Of a DNA stretch of 64,000 bases, positions 54,182-62,589 are shown piece by piece. The notes under the pieces are model-generated. The model worked only from the letters and a program-made list of their open reading frames with translations. It ran no database searches and was not told where the DNA came from. Position 1 is the stretch's first letter, and each line of letters starts with the position of its first letter. The stretch comes from Candidatus Latescibacterota bacterium (GTDB lineage Bacteria; Latescibacterota; UBA2968; UBA8231): NCBI GenBank assembly GCA_965206595.1, contig OZ242214.1, positions 4,512,001 to 4,576,000 of the forward strand, in the 5' to 3' direction. The position numbers were made by a program, and so were the translations under genes.

Positions 54182-55885
54182 TCACATCTCCTCCGGGGCT
54201 TTCATTCCGACCAGCTCCAGCCCCGTGCGCAGCACCGCGCGCACTGCGTCGACCAGCCTGATCCGCGCCTCGGCCAGCTCGGGGTCGCCGGGTACCAGCA
54301 CCTGAAGTTCGTTGTACATCTTGTTGGCGACCGCGGCCAATTCGAGCAGATAGGTGGTGATACAGGAAGGTTCGTCCTCGTCCGCGGCCTGTGCTACCTG
54401 TGCGGGAAACTCTGCGAGCTTTCGGGCGACTCGCATCTCGGCCTGTTCCCCCAGTCTGGCCGCGTCGCCGCGGTCCGGCGGTTTGCCGAATCGCCGCAGG
54501 ATGCTGCAGAAGCGCGCATGAGTGTACTGCAGGTAAGGCCCGGTCTCGCCGTCAAAGTTGAGGACCTCCTCCAGGGAAAAGCTCACGTCGCGAGTGCGCC
54601 GGTTGCTGACGTCGGCGAACACCACAGCCCCTATGCCCACCTGCCGCGCGACTTCTTCCCTGCCGGCGAGCTGCGGGTTCTTCTCGGAGATGATGCCCCG
54701 GGCAAGCTCGACGGCGCGCCCGAGCACGTCTTCGAGCAACAGCGCGTTCCCCTTGCGGGTTCCCATCGCTTCCCCTTTGAAGGAGAGCAACCCGAAGGGG
54801 GCGTGCACGCAGCGGCTGATCCAGTCGGCGCCGACCCGTTCCAGGGAGCCGAAAACCTGGCGGAAGTGCAGCTGCTGCCGGATGTCGGTGACGTATACCA
54901 TCTTGTCGAACCGGTAGCGCTCCCAGCGGTAGCGCAGGGCGGCCAGATCGCGGCTGTGGTAGGTGCTCGTACCGGCGCTGGTTCGCAGCATGCAGGGGGG
55001 AATGTCCTCTCCGAGGCGGACGATCAGCGCCCCCTCGCTCTCTTCGGCGAGCCCCTTTTCCGCGAAGAAGGCGATCGTCTCGTCGAGCCGGTCGGCGAAG
55101 TGGCTCTCGCCGAGGTAGTCGTCGAACTCCACTTCGAGAATGCGGTACATGCGCTCCGCTTCGCGGCGCCCTTCCTCTACGAAGTACCGCCACAGGGAGA
55201 CCATCTTCTCGTCGCCGGCGGCTAGGCGGACGAGTCGTGCCCGAGCTTCCTGGGCGAGCTCGGGATGGCTTTTCACCTCTTCGTTGAAGCGCACGTACAG
55301 GTTGGACAGCTCCGCCACCGGGTTGATTCTGACCTTGCCGGGATCGGCCCACAAGGTGTAGGCGGCGAGGAGCTGCCCGAAGTTGGCGCCGTAGTCGCCG
55401 TAGTAGTTGATGCCGACGCATTTCCATCCGAGGAAGGCGTGGATGCGGCGGATGGCGTTGCCGATTGCGGTCGAGCGCAGGTGCTGGATGCCGAACGGCT
55501 TGGCGAGATTCGGAGCGCCGAAGTCGATGGCGAGGGTCTTGCCCCGCCCCTGATTCCCGGACCCGAAGCAGTCCCCCGTGGCGGCGATTTCCTCGAGGGT
55601 GTGGCGAATGAAGGCGGTGCGGTTCAGCCTGAAGTTGACGTATCCCCCGGCTGCCTCGACGCCGTCGATCCGGTCGCTTGCGGTGCCGCTGAGCCGGGAG
55701 GCCACCTCGCCGGCGATCTGGGCAGGGTTCCGGCGCAGCTGCTTGGCCAGCGTGAAGCAGGGGAGCGCGTAGTCCCCCATTTCCTCCGCCGGCGGTACGG
55801 AAAGCAGTTCCCGCAAGGTCTCGGAGTCGACGCCGGTCGCCGACGCGGCACCTTCAAGTATTTCCTCTACGAACGGATTGGTCAC
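54182..55885 (-). CDS. argS: Arginine--tRNA ligase
   Basis: PNLAKP...HLRST.IG, GDYG..FG, GETGPYLQY.HAR, ends PEEM. Confidence 0.95.
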   Translation of the reverse strand: MTNPFVEEILEGAASATGVDSETLRELLSVPPAEEMGDYALPCFTLAKQLRRNPAQIAGEVASRLSGTASDRIDGVEAAGGYVNFRLNRTAFIRHTLEEIAATGDCFGSGNQGRGKTLAIDFGAPNLAKPFGIQHLRSTAIGNAIRRIHAFLGWKCVGINYYGDYGANFGQLLAAYTLWADPGKVRINPVAELSNLYVRFNEEVKSHPELAQEARARLVRLAAGDEKMVSLWRYFVEEGRREAERMYRILEVEFDDYLGESHFADRLDETIAFFAEKGLAEESEGALIVRLGEDIPPCMLRTSAGTSTYHSRDLAALRYRWERYRFDKMVYVTDIRQQLHFRQVFGSLERVGADWISRCVHAPFGLLSFKGEAMGTRKGNALLLEDVLGRAVELARGIISEKNPQLAGREEVARQVGIGAVVFADVSNRRTRDVSFSLEEVLNFDGETGPYLQYTHARFCSILRRFGKPPDRGDAARLGEQAEMRVARKLAEFPAQVAQAADEDEPSCITTYLLELAAVANKMYNELQVLVPGDPELAEARIRLVDAVRAVLRTGLELVGMKAPEEM

Positions 55886-56733
55886 GGTTCCACCTGGCCG
55901 AGCAGGGCCTGTTTCATTTCCTCCACCGGCGCGGCCACACCGGTCCAGATCTCGAAGGCGCGCGCTCCCTGGTGAACGAGCATTCCGAGCCCGTCGACGG
56001 TGCGCGCCCCGGCCTTTTCGGCCTGGGCCAGCAGGCGCGTGTGCCGCGGCTTGTAGACGATGTCGAGGACTGTGAGGCGGTCGTGCAATACCGACGGATC
56101 GGGTAGCGGGGAAGCATCCGGCCGCGGATGCATTCCGACCGAAGTCGCGTTTATCAGCAGGCCCGCTTCGCCCATGGCGCCCCCCCCGCCAAGAGTTCCG
56201 ACGCGCACGCGGCGGGCCTCCGGGTCGAGATCGGCAGCCAGGGCATCGGCTTTTTCCGCGGTGCGGTTGAGGAGCAGGACATCTTCTACTTCTTCGGCCT
56301 GCAGCAAGGCGTAGAGGATTGCCCGGGCGGCGCCCCCTGCCCCGAGCAGCACCACCGCCGCCGGCAGGGAATCGAGTCCGCCGTCGGCGCAGAGGCTGGC
56401 GATGACGCCTTCCGCATCGGTGTTGTACCCGGTCAGGCGCCCATCCTTGTTGGCGATCGTGTTCACCGCCCCGATGGCCCGGGCTTCTTCCGAGATCTCG
56501 TCCAGTCCCTCCATCACCGCCACCTTGTGCGGCACCGTTACGTTCAGGCCGCGGATGCCGAGCGTCCGCATAGCCACCGGAACCTCGGCGACGCGGTCCG
56601 GGGGGACGGCGAACGGCAGGTAGGCGAAATCGAGTTCCGTCCTGGCGAGCGCGGCGTTGTGCATCGCCGGAGAGAAGCTGTGCTCGACGGGGTACCCGAT
56701 CACCCCGAGCAGGCCGGTTCTCGAGGTGATCAA
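55882..56733 (-). CDS. aroE: Shikimate dehydrogenase
   Basis: HSFSP.MHN, NVTVPHK, GAVNT, NTD, GAGGAARA, NRT, MLVHQG. Confidence 0.97.
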   Translation of the reverse strand: MITSRTGLLGVIGYPVEHSFSPAMHNAALARTELDFAYLPFAVPPDRVAEVPVAMRTLGIRGLNVTVPHKVAVMEGLDEISEEARAIGAVNTIANKDGRLTGYNTDAEGVIASLCADGGLDSLPAAVVLLGAGGAARAILYALLQAEEVEDVLLLNRTAEKADALAADLDPEARRVRVGTLGGGGAMGEAGLLINATSVGMHPRPDASPLPDPSVLHDRLTVLDIVYKPRHTRLLAQAEKAGARTVDGLGMLVHQGARAFEIWTGVAAPVEEMKQALLGQVEP

Positions 56734-56870
56734 CCGAGGAGATCCTCGATGAACTGGTCGGCTATCTCCAGACTCTCGCTCCAGCTCGCACCGTAGAGGA
56801 GCTTGATAAACAACACGCCGCCTCCGAACAGCAGGGCGAGCAGCGCGAACAAGCGTATGAACCCACTCAT
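56730..56870 (-). CDS. 46-aa putative single-pass membrane protein (not in the ORF track)
   Basis: MSGFIRLFALLALLFGGGVLFIKLLYGASWSESLEIADQFIEDLLG*. AGGAGAGG RBS; ATGA overlap with the upstream gene and TTGA overlap with aroE. Confidence 0.75.
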   Translation of the reverse strand: MSGFIRLFALLALLFGGGVLFIKLLYGASWSESLEIADQFIEDLLG

Positions 56871-58153
56871 GTCACCTCTCCTTTCTTGTCCTGCAAAGCC
56901 TGCAACAGATCGCAGAAGCCGGGAAAAATCTCTTGCAGACAGCCGCTGTCTGCGAGAACCATCTCCCCTTCGGCGAGCAGTCCCGCAACCGCGAACGCCA
57001 TCGCGAGTCCGGAATTGTTCCTGCAGTCGATCTCCCCCCCTGTCAGGGGCCTGCCCCCTTCTATGACGATCCCCTCGGGATACTCCCCGACTTTCGCCCC
57101 GATTCTGCGCAGAGCGGAAACCAGGTGAGCGACCAGATCGTGGCTCCCCTGCCGCAGGGGGGCGATGTCACGAATGATGAATTCACCCTCCACCTGGGTC
57201 GCCAGCACCGCCAGCATCGCCATCTGATCGAGGAGGCGTTCGCTGCGCCCCCCGGCGACGCGAGTTCCCTTGAGCCTGGCGGCCCCGACAACGAGGTCCG
57301 CCGCACCGTCTTCCCGCTCTTCGACCGCGGCCTCGCCGCCGATCTGCCTGAGAAGGTCGAGGAACGGGCGCTGTGGCGAGCGCAGCTCGACGTTGCGGAT
57401 GCGGACCTTCGAGCCCTTCAGACTCGAAGCGGCGACAACAAGCGGCAACGCCAACCGCAGCTCACCCGGCACGGAGACCCGAACTGCCCGCAGGTGCGTT
57501 CCCCCCTCCACGGCAATCGCGCGCGCGCCCTCCCGCCGGCTCCGTGAAATTCCGCCGCAGCGGCGATCCAACAGCTCGTCGACGCGGTCCCTGGAGGAAG
57601 GCGGTTCCCTGACCTCGGTGGCGCCCTTTCCGTACAGGCCGGCGATCAGCAGCGCCAGCTTCACCGGTGCCTCGAGGTCGGTCTCGGGATGTGAAGCCCC
57701 CTTCATGCCGTCGCCGCGGTCGAAGGCGACTACATCGCCGGCTGCGAGACGGCCTGCCGCTCCCATTCTGCCGAGGAGCTCGAGGAGCCGGGTGCAGGAC
57801 TCCTGCTGAGCCGCGGGAATCCGGGCCCGAAAGGGAATGCCCTGCCCGGCGAGCACGGCCAGCGCCGGCAGAGCCGTTGCTCCGGTGTCGGTGAGATCGA
57901 CGATGCCTTCAACGCGGCGCAGGGCATGCGGGCCTGCCCCTCGAATCGCCAGGGTGGAGTTTTCCCGCCTGGTTTCGATGCCCGCCCTGTGCAGCCAGGA
58001 GACCAGGCGCTCCGAGCCCGGAGGGAGGTTGTCGACTTCCGAGTCCCCCTCGGCAACTGCGGCCAGCAGCAGAGCCAGGGCGGCTCCGTCCCGGTCGCCC
58101 GGGACGCGCGCCTCCCCCTCGAGCCTGTGCGCTGCGGCTACTCGCTGCCGCAT
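56867..58153 (-). CDS. EPSP synthase (AroA)-fold protein with degenerate active site
   Basis: Full length (428 aa) and collinear with class II AroA (LEGEARVPGD, VKLALLIAGL, SRD, VPG, AMAFAVAGL, FPGF), but catalytic motifs are replaced. Confidence 0.85.
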   Translation of the reverse strand: MRQRVAAAHRLEGEARVPGDRDGAALALLLAAVAEGDSEVDNLPPGSERLVSWLHRAGIETRRENSTLAIRGAGPHALRRVEGIVDLTDTGATALPALAVLAGQGIPFRARIPAAQQESCTRLLELLGRMGAAGRLAAGDVVAFDRGDGMKGASHPETDLEAPVKLALLIAGLYGKGATEVREPPSSRDRVDELLDRRCGGISRSRREGARAIAVEGGTHLRAVRVSVPGELRLALPLVVAASSLKGSKVRIRNVELRSPQRPFLDLLRQIGGEAAVEEREDGAADLVVGAARLKGTRVAGGRSERLLDQMAMLAVLATQVEGEFIIRDIAPLRQGSHDLVAHLVSALRRIGAKVGEYPEGIVIEGGRPLTGGEIDCRNNSGLAMAFAVAGLLAEGEMVLADSGCLQEIFPGFCDLLQALQDKKGEVT

Positions 58154-58181
58154 CTGTCAATCGGTTGGCGGGAAATGCGGA

Positions 58182-59312
58182 TCACGGCAATCGAGCCTGG
58201 TAGCCGAGGGAGTTGAGCACCACCAGCGACTGCTCGGCTGCCTCGGGGCTGTCGAACCCCAGGCGGATGGTGCCGCCTTCACCCTCGCGCACCTTCATCA
58301 CCTCGATGTCGTTGATGTTGAGATTCTCCGCGGCCAGACCGCCGGCAATTTCGGCAATCACTCCCGGTTTGTCCTCGGCGACGACGAGAATCTCGTGCAG
58401 GCGGTGCAGAAACCCCTTGGCGTCGCGCGGGATCGAGGCCCGCATTTCATTGGCGAAATCGAAATCCCGTTGCAGGCTCTCGTCCCCAACGCGTTCCCGG
58501 ACATCGCGCAGCATGGCCGAGAAACGGTCGATCAGCTCGCGAATGCTGTCGGCGTTGGTCCTGCATATGTCCTCCCACACAGGGGCGAAGGGACTGGAGG
58601 CGATGCGCGTCAGGTCGCGGAAACCTCCCGCTGCCAGCGGCAGATACAGGCCTCCTTCTTCCTCGTCCATGCGTCCCACCATCTCGACGAGCGAGGTCGC
58701 CAGCATCTGCGGCAAGTGCGAAATCGCCGCGACCACGCGGTCGTGCATCTCGGCGGACAACTCGACGACCCTGGCACCAATGCGCCCCAGCAGCAGCTGC
58801 AGGTCGGCATAGAGCCGTTCCGGGACGCGCTCATCCGGTATCAGGATGTAGATCGCATTCTGAAAAAGGAACGGATCGGCGGCGCGGACTCCCGATCGTT
58901 CGGAGCCTGCCATCGGGTGTCCGCCTATGAAGTATGCCTTCTCTCTGCCTGCGGCGCGCGCGGTTTGCGCGATCACCCGCTTGGTGCTGCCTACATCCGT
59001 TATCAGGGCATTTTCGCGGGCGAGGCGCATCACCTCGGGGAGGAGTTCCACGATGCGCCGGATCGGAGTGCAGAGCAGGACCAGATCGGCATCAGCGATC
59101 CCCCTGTCGAGCTCTTCGTAGGAATACCCTTCGTCGAGCACTCCCAGATCGAGGGCCTTGGCGATGGTCTCGTTGCGGCTGATGCCGACAACGCGCGTCG
59201 AGGGGGCGGCCTGCCTGACTGCGAGTCCAAGGGAACCGCCGATCAGGCCGACGCCGACTATGGCGATACGCTCGAAGACGTCAGCTCTCCTCGCGTCCTG
59301 GCTGCGGGCCAT
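58182..59312 (-). CDS. tyrA: Prephenate/arogenate dehydrogenase with C-terminal ACT domain
   Basis: GVGLIGGS, DVGSTK, GGHPMAGSE, HD...SHLP, GFRDLTRIA, DKPGVIA. Confidence 0.95.
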   Translation of the reverse strand: MARSQDARRADVFERIAIVGVGLIGGSLGLAVRQAAPSTRVVGISRNETIAKALDLGVLDEGYSYEELDRGIADADLVLLCTPIRRIVELLPEVMRLARENALITDVGSTKRVIAQTARAAGREKAYFIGGHPMAGSERSGVRAADPFLFQNAIYILIPDERVPERLYADLQLLLGRIGARVVELSAEMHDRVVAAISHLPQMLATSLVEMVGRMDEEEGGLYLPLAAGGFRDLTRIASSPFAPVWEDICRTNADSIRELIDRFSAMLRDVRERVGDESLQRDFDFANEMRASIPRDAKGFLHRLHEILVVAEDKPGVIAEIAGGLAAENLNINDIEVMKVREGEGGTIRLGFDSPEAAEQSLVVLNSLGYQARLP

Positions 59313-59324
59313 TCGACATTCCGG

Positions 59325-59582
59325 TCACTGCTGTTCGAGGTCGCGAGCTGCGGCGATAATGCGCGTGAAAACGTCGACCAATGCCCTGTCTCCCAGGGGG
59401 CCCTGGTTGTACTCCCGCAGCCGTTGCAACAGGTCGCGTTCCCGTTGCGGGTCGCGGACCTCCAACCCTTCCGCGCGCTTGATCTTCCCGATCTCCACGG
59501 CGTACTCGAGCCGCTTGTTGATAAGATCGACCAGCTCTTCGTCGACCTCGTCGATGCGGGCACGCCACTCACTGAGGTCCAT
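59325..59582 (-). CDS. Chorismate mutase (AroQ class, monofunctional)
   Basis: LSEWRARIDEVD...KR...IGKIK...VRDPQRE. Confidence 0.92.
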   Translation of the reverse strand: MDLSEWRARIDEVDEELVDLINKRLEYAVEIGKIKRAEGLEVRDPQRERDLLQRLREYNQGPLGDRALVDVFTRIIAAARDLEQQ

Positions 59583-59634
59583 TCGCAACTGCGCTCCTGT
59601 TCGGGACACCCCGTTTCCCGGCCGCGATCCCGGA

Positions 59635-60629: not shown

Positions 60630-61424
<795 letters not shown>

Positions 61425-61581
61425 GTTTCCTGGAACAATCCCGACAACCCCGCCGGGCGCCTTGTCCCCGAAACGGGTTGCCGAAGTTCGACCGCGGGGT
61501 CGCCCGGCTCGCAAGGAACCTGAGCGGGTCGCGGCGGGGTCGTACTGCGGGCGAATGGCCGGAAATGGATGAGACGGAACA

Positions 61582-62589
61582 CTAGGAGTTGCTGATTTCG
61601 ACGAGCTTTTCGAGCGCGGCGAGGGCCGCGCCGGAGGCGATGCTCTCCTCGGCCACGGGGGTCCCGGAAGGCAGATCCTCCGCAAGGTCTCCGGCGGCAA
61701 CGGCCGCTGCGGCGTTCATCACGACGACGTCCTTGGCCGGCCCCGGCTTGCCTTCGAGCACGGACCGCAGAATGGCGGCGTTGTCGGCAGCCGTCCCCCC
61801 CAGGAGATCGGCGGCTGTCGTCGTCTCGAAGCCAAAACAGCCCGGGGCGACCTCGAAGGTTCTCAGGACTCCGTTTTTCAGCTCGGTGACCTGCGAAGGC
61901 CCGGTCGACGTGATCTCGTCGAGGCCGTCGCTGCCGTGAACCACGTAGGCGCGCTCGGAACCCAGCATCTGCAGCACTCCGGCCAACTTCTCGGTGAGGC
62001 TGGCGTCGAAAACGCCGAGCAGCTGCCGCCTGGCCCCGGCGGGATTGGTCAGGGGTCCGAGGATGTTGAACACGGTGCGGGTGCCGATCTCCCTGCGAGG
62101 GCCGATGGCGTGCTTCATCGCCCCGTGCAACAACGGGGCGAAAAGAAAGCCGATGCCCGCTTCATCGAGACACTCGGCGACCTTCTCAGGGCCGGCCTCG
62201 ATGTTGACCCCCAGCTCCAGCAGCACATCGGCGGAGCCGCACCTGCTCGACATTGCCCGGTTTCCGTGCTTGGCAACGCAGAGCCCGGCGCCGGCGGCGA
62301 CGAAGGCGACCGCTGTAGAGATGTTGAAGGTCCCCGAACCGTCCCCTCCGGTGCCGCAGGTGTCGATCTTCGTTCCCCTGCCGCCGCCGATGCGCGTCGC
62401 CTTCTCCCGCATCACCTCGGCGAAGCCCGCCACCTCGGTCACGGTCTCGCCCTTGCAGCGCAGGGCGATCAGGAAGGCTCCTATCTGGGCGTCGGTCGCC
62501 TGACCGCTCATGATCTGGTCCATCGCCCCGCGGGCGCTATCGCGGTCGAAATCCACCCCGTCGAGCAGCTGTTGAATTACGGTCTGCAT
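61582..62589 (-). CDS. trpD: Anthranilate phosphoribosyltransferase
   Basis: DTCGTGGDG, NIST, KHGNR..SS..GSAD, RTVFNILGPL.NP, GLDE. Confidence 0.98.
   Translation of the reverse strand: MQTVIQQLLDGVDFDRDSARGAMDQIMSGQATDAQIGAFLIALRCKGETVTEVAGFAEVMREKATRIGGGRGTKIDTCGTGGDGSGTFNISTAVAFVAAGAGLCVAKHGNRAMSSRCGSADVLLELGVNIEAGPEKVAECLDEAGIGFLFAPLLHGAMKHAIGPRREIGTRTVFNILGPLTNPAGARRQLLGVFDASLTEKLAGVLQMLGSERAYVVHGSDGLDEITSTGPSQVTELKNGVLRTFEVAPGCFGFETTTAADLLGGTAADNAAILRSVLEGKPGPAKDVVVMNAAAAVAAGDLAEDLPSGTPVAEESIASGAALAALEKLVEISNS

Follow-up and report, generated by a model that had tools for sequence, protein, structure and literature searches.

The closest described relatives of the gene reported here are the class II 5-enolpyruvylshikimate-3-phosphate (EPSP) synthases (AroA, EC 2.5.1.19), for which structures are available from Coxiella burnetii (3roi, 3slh and 3tr1), Bacillus halodurans (3rmt) and Agrobacterium CP4 (2gg4). 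The gene, which we call psAroA, lies in a 64,000-nucleotide stretch of a Candidatus Latescibacterota genome (assembly GCA_965206595.1, contig OZ242214.1, positions 4,512,001 to 4,576,000 of the forward strand), and this whole stretch is referred to as the window. psAroA resembles class II EPSP synthases in its full-length two-domain fold, in its collinearity with them and in its place beside tyrA. Unlike these enzymes, it has nearly all substrate-binding and catalytic residues replaced, and it is not the sole AroA homologue in its genome. Comparative analysis gives good support to the view that psAroA is catalytically dead as an EPSP synthase yet under purifying selection. The same adjacency of tyrA and aroA is seen in the bifunctional prephenate dehydrogenase/EPSP synthase described by NF011381, although in the window the two are separate genes and are not fused.

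HisZ, a catalytically dead paralogue of histidyl-tRNA synthetase, serves as the regulatory subunit of the short-form ATP phosphoribosyltransferase. The likeness to psAroA is an analogy of working principle only, in that a dead housekeeping paralogue would be kept in amino-acid biosynthesis for a non-catalytic role. HisZ differs in having a demonstrated partner (HisG) and a ligand and in belonging to an unrelated fold family, whereas psAroA is known here from sequence. Half of an EPSP synthase can fold alone, as seen in the isolated N-terminal domain prepared in the laboratory (1p88 and 1p89, a 216-residue chain, and 3ti2, of 228 residues). These constructs match residues 26-240 and 17-243, respectively, of the working AroA of the window's genome, and thus represent the half that binds shikimate-3-phosphate (S3P); the natural single-domain forms described below keep the opposite half, made up of the N-terminal strand and the C-terminal half. 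Full-text literature searches found no description of an EPSP-synthase pseudoenzyme or of a dead EPSP synthase. A preprint on EPSP-synthase classification uses the word 'unclassified' 10 times and never the words 'inactive', 'non-functional' or 'pseudogene'.

The psAroA open reading frame (ORF) has no internal stop in the ORF listing of the window, and its start codon lies 28 nucleotides beyond the stop codon of tyrA. Residues 7-416 of the 428-residue product match PF00275 with 139 bits, over profile positions 3-416 of 417. On the aroA equivalog TIGR01356 of NCBIfam, psAroA scores 154.5 bits, under the curated cut-off of 287.25 bits. Its best NCBIfam match is NF011381 (PRK14806), with 170.4 bits over model positions 305-724 and a cut-off of 902 bits. 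The MurA model TIGR01072 is matched by the C-terminal half only, at 51.3 bits, below its cut-off of 392.7 bits. An AlphaFold2 (AF2) model based on an alignment of 19 orthologues reached a predicted local distance difference test score (pLDDT) of 91.4 and a predicted template-modelling score (pTM) of 0.87. The top Foldseek matches of this model (E 1e-40) were exclusively AroA, the best template-modelling score being 0.81 with unliganded Coxiella AroA (3roi_B), so that Pfam, AF2 and Foldseek all return the two-domain fold of enolpyruvyl transferases. By phmmer, the closest solved structures are class II enzymes, with Coxiella burnetii 3roi/3tr1 (E 5e-51) followed by those of B. halodurans, S. 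pneumoniae and CP4. Relatives of psAroA are named 'hypothetical protein' by NCBI and '3-phosphoshikimate 1-carboxyvinyltransferase' by JGI pipelines.

Because contigs assembled from three public runs, belonging to three studies, cover positions 56700-58250 with 0 differences and 0 gaps, psAroA is not an assembly artefact. In run X9, one low-depth contig (3.8) carries two single-base insertions, two bases apart, at 56880-56882, within the last psAroA codons. These codons encode a disordered tail and hold the ribosome-binding site of the downstream gene sm46, and the insertions may be an error or a strain variant.

To map individual residues, we used a HMMER alignment of psAroA with Coxiella burnetii AroA (3roi/3tr1). 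In the N-terminal region, PGDKSISHR of the Coxiella enzyme is replaced by PGDRDGAAL, GNSGT by TDTGA and RRPM by QESC; further on, SAQVK reads EAPVK, SRDHTE reads SRDRVD and PGDISSA reads PGELRLA. Within the C-terminal half, IDE has become LDQ, LRVKETDR has become LRQGSHDL, DHR has become NSG, and the lysine at the K411 position is Q. In E. coli numbering, the changes are K22R, S23D, R27L, N94D, R124E, S169E, Q171P, K340G, E341S, R344L, H385S, R386G and K411Q. The residues of E. coli AroA that bind phosphoenolpyruvate (PEP) or S3P or act in catalysis are K22, S23, R27, N94, R124, S169, Q171, D313, K340, E341, R344, H385, R386 and K411. All 14 of these positions are replaced in psAroA save the one aligned with D313, which remains D; the change of K22 to R is conservative when taken alone. 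Opposite the class II motif RPMXR, present in the Coxiella enzyme as RPMKR, psAroA has ESCTR. Lys22, Arg124 and Lys411 are named as residues of the PEP/glyphosate site in PMC3411725, where the title of a cited reference states that the RPMXR motif is required for the activity of class II enzymes. A sequence-only reading of this stretch had proposed an intact AroA-fold ORF in the aroA slot after tyrA, with its known motifs systematically replaced; the intact frame and the retained fold both stand, and every swap that it listed is seen in the alignment to Coxiella AroA.

Loss of the active site is not peculiar to the window's genome. In a table of 23 positions, nine sequences from the window's family (f1) hold varied non-canonical residues at most canonical positions, and the replacements recur in all nine of the members aligned. 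The K22 position is R, L, F or I and the R27 position L, Q, E, R or K, depending on the genus, while 7 of the 9 sequences have an acidic residue at the R124 position. Replacement of K340 by G is found in 7/9 sequences from f1, 10/10 from families f2 and f4 and 3/3 single-domain sequences, a sharing that fits one early loss within the class without proving it. The full-length dead copies of f2 and f4 (L064, L088-L096) have P at the K22 position in nine of ten cases and M at the R27 position in all ten; they carry a G-D/E-D/E-D-E string at the SRDHxE positions and retain R386 (10/10). Former active-site positions are thus conserved in f2/f4 and variable in the window's family, and may be under a different constraint in the two groups.

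A canonical AroA is encoded elsewhere in the same genome. The genome (G000) is a single contig of 7.05 Mb with three PF00275 genes, one of which, at C1:1290072-1291319 and 3.3 Mb from psAroA, scores 360.4 bits on TIGR01356, above the cut-off. Its alignment shows that K22, R27, N94, G96, R124, S169, Q171, D242, D313, K340, E341, D343, R344, H385 and R386 are all retained. This second AroA is class-I-like, with V. cholerae 3nvs as its best match in the Protein Data Bank (1.3e-53), followed by Klebsiella, E. coli and plant enzymes. The third gene, at C1:602805-604004, is presumably murA, because its PF00275 score (269.7 bits) is far above its aroA score (86.9 bits). Among 121 genomes sampled from the window's class, which public records label Latescibacterota, 113 hold an AroA above the TIGR01356 cut-off; the eight without one are drafts of 110-980 contigs. 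Since it is the sole canonical copy in the window's class, the class-I-like copy most likely performs the EPSP-synthase reaction there.

Canonical AroA proteins fall into two groups by TIGR01356 score, one at about 331-373 bits, to which the window's genus belongs along with several f1 genera, and the other at about 413-469 bits, made up of families f2-f4 together with the f1 genera g14, g2 and g17. In the quick tree described below, the canonical AroA of the window's genome sits on a long branch (1.47), which could reflect fast evolution or a second replacement.

When only true slot copies are counted, in the gene order tyrA-X-46aa-aroE, a dead copy is present in 116 of the 121 class genomes. 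Three of the remaining five have no match, one of which shows a contig-end fragment in a separate look, and the other two (G026 and G063) match only their working AroA. Within the window's own family, 23 of 24 genomes hold an orthologue of the dead copy; the one that does not is 86% complete and is also without an aroE match. A pattern scan with one genome per species yielded 36 loci, all with the dead copy and all belonging to metagenome-assembled genomes whose labels are Latescibacterota, Gemmatimonadetes or similar names. Up to the ends of their contigs, they have in common the gene order trpD-trpC-trpS-CM-tyrA-psAroA-sm46-aroE-argS-aroK-aroB-rimO, where CM is chorismate mutase. TyrA across the class is 56-59% identical to that of the window, and the 1.3-kb psAroA ORF is full length in most of the 116 genomes that have it.

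Pairwise ratios of nonsynonymous to synonymous substitution rates (omega), calculated by the NG86 method for 13 closely related pairs, were 0.11-0.32 for psAroA. In the same comparison they were 0.05-0.23 for tyrA, 0.04-0.31 for aroE and 0.10-0.45 for aroK. Codon bootstrapping of one psAroA pair gave a range of 0.16-0.30. As a control, the two shifted reading frames gave values of 1.05-2.31 in 6/6 pairs; set against the low values of the true frame, this indicates constraint on the amino acids of psAroA. The gene therefore combines enzyme homology and loss of catalytic residues with purifying selection across lineages, as a pseudoenzyme does. A second canonical aroA elsewhere in the genome, the same degenerate copy at this locus in relatives and a dN/dS below 1 were all anticipated from the window alone, and each was found.

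Constraint is unevenly distributed along the protein. For this comparison domain 1 comprised residues 1-20 and 229-424 and domain 2 residues 21-228, boundaries that follow the known AroA fold and the alignment. Mean pairwise identity within the window's family is 52% for domain 1 and 37% for domain 2; among the live slot enzymes of other classes, introduced below, the corresponding values are 62% and 58%. Omega ranges from 0.04 to 0.23 in domain 1 and from 0.16 to 0.50 in domain 2 and is higher for domain 2 in 12/12 pairs. The conserved core of residues 229-428, read from invariant alignment columns, is LLAVLATQ..GEFIIRDI..LR..D..AHLV..LR...AKVGE[YF]PEG.

In some lineages the less constrained domain is missing altogether. 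In genus g19 (family f2), each of the 21 species sampled carries in the same slot a single-domain gene of about 215-226 codons, as do two genomes of family f3 (G028 and G030). In these ORFs (for example in G025 and G028) the N-terminal strand is fused straight to the second PGD-type motif, which amounts to a precise excision of domain 2. Because other f2 genera and f4 have full-length dead copies, excision took place, by parsimony, at least two times. Omega among the single-domain genes has a median of 0.16 and a range of 0.05-0.44 (208 of 210 pairs). Their AF2 model (pLDDT 91.6, pTM 0.89) superposes on one half of AroA with a TMq of up to 0.79. Close homologues of single-domain length on megabase-size contigs form about 16 clusters (at least 74% identity); most other short matches are fragments of genes on 1-3-kb contigs.

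A live enzyme fills the slot in six families sampled from other classes of the phylum. Eight genomes from these families (f5, f6, f9, f11, f12 and f13) were examined, and all eight hold a slot-matching gene that scores 393-417 bits on TIGR01356; no other match exceeds 87 bits, which leaves the slot gene as the sole AroA above the cut-off. In the six live copies that were aligned (L107-L111, L116), nearly all of the 23 positions bear the canonical residue. Slot genes are seen in the flanks of five of the six live loci fetched (aroE in four, tyrA in two and sm46 in three). The live enzymes belong to the same clade as psAroA, occupy the same slot tyrA-X-sm46-aroE wherever flanks are seen and share with it the domain-1 motifs AKVGE and IRD..LR. 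They differ from psAroA in keeping their active-site positions, in their equivalog scores and in being the only AroA of their genomes, and overall identity is about 33%. In family f10 the slot copy is more degenerate still (62-82 bits), and a canonical AroA lies elsewhere in the genome (401-433 bits).

A quick maximum-likelihood tree, with SH-aLRT (approximate likelihood-ratio test) support only and with three single-domain sequences left out, placed dead and live slot copies together on one side of a branch (SH-aLRT 98), apart from the AroA type found elsewhere in the genomes. Long stems lead to the dead groups in this tree (0.67 for f1, 1.09 for f2 and f4 and 1.82 for f10). It leaves the branching order of live slot copies, dead f1 and dead f2 plus f4 open, and with it the choice between a single loss and several. 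Among the best 150 matches of a profile search of 1.84 billion representatives, at most 3 of 13 canonical positions survive in 35, and 12 or 13 do so in 107, which shows that the phenomenon is not a small one. Source names, available for 3 of the 10 clusters looked up, bear Latescibacterota, Gemmatimonadota and Zixibacteria labels. One cluster (P0258, 456 aa, Zixibacteria label) keeps nine of the 13 positions, with K22 changed to R, R27 to Q, Q171 to L and R386 to L, and may represent an intermediate or partly degenerate state.

On the simplest reading, psAroA descends from the class-II-type EPSP synthase of the tyrA-aroA-sm46-aroE slot in this phylum, labelled Latescibacterota. The aromatic operon slot would originally have held a working class II AroA; a class-I-like AroA would then have become available, and the slot copy would have lost its cationic PEP-binding and S3P-binding residues together with its catalytic ones. 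This loss would date from the origin of the window's class or before it, and would have taken place in f10 as well or at an earlier time.

We consider it fairly probable that psAroA is a non-catalytic pseudoenzyme whose function resides in domain 1, as a structural or regulatory partner, and was probably inherited from the live ancestor. The slot gene was kept as an expressed-looking, foldable ORF under purifying selection, with selection centred on domain 1 (the N-terminal strand and residues ~229-424) and domain 2 relaxed, to the point of being precisely excised in sister lineages. Domain 1 would then be a protein module with a structural or regulatory task, a partner co-produced with the operon neighbours to which its translation is coupled, and this role would probably have been present already in the ancestral enzyme. 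It follows from this proposal that the protein is presumably made and that it binds a putative partner.

Several observations weigh against a domain-1 function. psAroA evolves faster than its neighbours: sequences from outside the genus share 38-50% identity with the window's protein, versus about 60-70% for tyrA and aroE. The omega values are pairwise NG86 estimates and not a codon-model test; the pairs share lineages and are not independent, and the genome has a GC content of about 66%. psAroA is dispensable in some lineages, because G063 has lost it (L120, G063:C15:216000-227000), with sm46 following tyrA after about 250 nucleotides, and the single-contig genome G050 (L119, G050:C1:3369000-3378000) retains only a remnant, a 174-aa ORF that corresponds to the last ~160 residues of a congener's full-length dead copy at 80% identity. 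None of the 24 sequencing runs listed with the sequence is an RNA run. The live slot enzymes conserve the same residues as domain 1 of the dead copies (IRD, LR, D339 and AKVGE), and compared with them psAroA has gained no surface motif that would mark a new function. Finally, both exact deletions of domain 2 could have arisen by recombination between the two internal PGD-type repeats, without selection for domain 1.

Some of these same observations suit a slowly eroding relic that has no function of its own, in which the ORF stays open so as not to uncouple translation of sm46 and aroE and to avoid the cost of misfolding, and in-frame deletions are tolerated and take the gene away little by little. 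The independent reductions (domain 2 gone in g19 and f3, the remnant in G050 and the loss in G063), the divergence relative to neighbouring genes, the stop/start overlaps with the ribosome-binding site of sm46 inside the 3' end of psAroA, and the lack of a new conserved motif all agree with it. Polarity alone, however, sets no constraint on amino acids, whereas omega is 0.04-0.23 in domain 1 and has a median of 0.16 in the single-domain genes, at the level of the neighbouring enzymes, and exceeds 1 in shifted frames. Nor does a relic fit well with an ORF still full length in most of the genomes that carry it, across a depth at which TyrA is only 56-59% identical to the window's, and the cost of misfolding leaves the stronger constraint on domain 1 than on domain 2 unexplained. 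We therefore regard a relic as unlikely.

The old cleft between the domains might instead have acquired a new catalytic or small-molecule-binding function, making psAroA a neofunctionalised relative of the enolpyruvyl transferases or a ligand sensor. The modelled window protein retains both domains and the geometry of the cleft, omega in domain 2 is still below 1, and the full-length dead copies of f2 and f4 conserve residues of their own at the replaced positions. Within the window's family, by contrast, the same positions vary between genera, the acidic residues at the R124 position being the commonest state there, and most of the cationic residues that contact PEP, phosphate or S3P are replaced, with the K22 position alone staying cationic, as R. 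Moreover, g19 and f3 have dropped domain 2 while the remainder is under selection, so the conserved function cannot need the cleft. A new activity, which the sequence-only reading had offered as an alternative, thus finds no support in the variation of the former active-site positions among genera of the window's family or in the deletion of domain 2 from whole lineages, and we regard a cleft function as improbable. That psAroA still works as an EPSP synthase and represents a highly divergent class not yet recognised, as its full-length PF00275 match in the aroA slot and the JGI name of its relatives would allow, is very hard to reconcile with a TIGR01356 score under the cut-off, the replacement of R27, R124, K340, E341, R344, H385, R386 and K411, the roles assigned to Lys22, Arg124, Lys411 and RPMXR in PMC3411725 and in a reference title there, the canonical AroA in the same genome and the NCBI name 'hypothetical protein'.

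Returning to a non-catalytic function of domain 1, a bolder version can be put forward only tentatively: that domain 1 of the operon's class II EPSP synthase has a further function, non-catalytic in nature, which the live enzyme already possessed. Such a function could be that of an assembly or regulatory subunit for another protein of the aromatic pathway, in the manner of HisZ. Takeover of the chemistry by the class-I-like enzyme would then have left only the moonlighting module under selection, which would now exist in some lineages as a free-standing protein of about 215 residues.

The genes around psAroA (Table 1) point to an operon with coupled translation. The stop codon of psAroA and the start of sm46 overlap in ATGA, sm46 and aroE overlap in TTGA, and a GGAGAGG Shine-Dalgarno sequence for sm46 lies within the last psAroA codons. 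sm46 has no Pfam or NCBIfam match. It is found in 35 of the 36 related loci, as a 46-aa ORF in 34 and cut by the contig end in one, with 33 ATG and two GTG starts. The N-terminal stretch of its product is hydrophobic and leads into a conserved acidic helix (YG.SW.ES.EIADQF.EDLL), with W30, E32, Q39, F40 and D43 invariant, and its omega is 0-0.27. Across the phylum sm46 adjoins live as well as dead slot AroA genes, and its product seems to be a so far undescribed small membrane protein of the aromatic operon. By its position sm46 is an obvious candidate partner, but a pairing confined to the dead copy was rejected, given that sm46 accompanies live slot AroA and persists where psAroA is deleted. 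A fusion of TyrA with psAroA was likewise rejected: the frames of 656-796 aa in some orthologues are out-of-frame, Arg/Gly/Pro-rich read-through of tyrA.

Table 1. Features of the aromatic operon around psAroA (window coordinates).
Feature	Position	Strand	Description
psAroA	56867..58153	-	Intact ORF, 428 aa, ATG start, stop codon 56867-56869; class II EPSP-synthase fold, ablated active site
psAroA residues 1-20	58094..58153	-	N-terminal strand, structurally part of domain 1; kept in natural single-domain forms
psAroA residues 21-228	57470..58093	-	Domain 2, former S3P-binding half; less constrained
psAroA residues 229-428	56870..57469	-	C-terminal half, most of domain 1; conserved core
sm46	56730..56870	-	46-aa predicted membrane peptide; ATG overlaps psAroA stop, stop overlaps aroE TTG
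aroE	55882..56733	-	Shikimate dehydrogenase; PF08501, PF18317, PF01488; downstream of sm46, TTG start, translationally coupled
argS	54182..55885	-	Arginyl-tRNA synthetase
tyrA	58182..59312	-	Prephenate dehydrogenase with C-terminal ACT; PF02153, PF20463, PF01842; NF005107 300 bits (below its 414-bit cut-off)
Chorismate mutase, AroQ type	59325..59609	-	PF01817 85 bits; conserved synteny in related loci
trpC	60630..61700	-	ORF of 356 aa, TTG start

The window holds no Rfam match, and a scan for promoters and terminators showed nothing notable around psAroA. The trpC ORF overlaps the 3' end of trpD by 119 nucleotides; its N-terminal ~100 residues are mostly unaligned outside the genus and matches begin near residue 101, which probably places the true start further downstream. 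Two aminoacyl-tRNA synthetase genes are interspersed, argS between aroE and aroK and trpS between chorismate mutase and trpC, and both recur in most related loci that reach that far.

Class I EPSP synthases are described as glyphosate-sensitive in PMC3411725. Surveys that predict glyphosate sensitivity from EPSP-synthase class would pick up the class II look-alike in these genomes, where the sole canonical copy is class-I-like. Annotation is affected as well, with JGI giving relatives of psAroA the name of an EPSP synthase and NCBI calling them hypothetical. Within one phylum, the slot offers a natural series from live enzyme through dead two-domain protein and selected single-domain form to remnant and loss, and the locus is useful for studying how an enzyme becomes a pseudoenzyme after displacement by a paralogue or xenologue. 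The single-domain protein, which modelling predicts to be a natural stable half of the inside-out alpha/beta-barrel fold, would be a ready object for work on folding and design. If domain 1 does carry a second function that predates the loss of catalysis, the EPSP synthases of this bacterial group would be bifunctional, and the single-domain form would be the smallest unit of a regulatory or scaffolding mechanism of the shikimate pathway that is so far undescribed.

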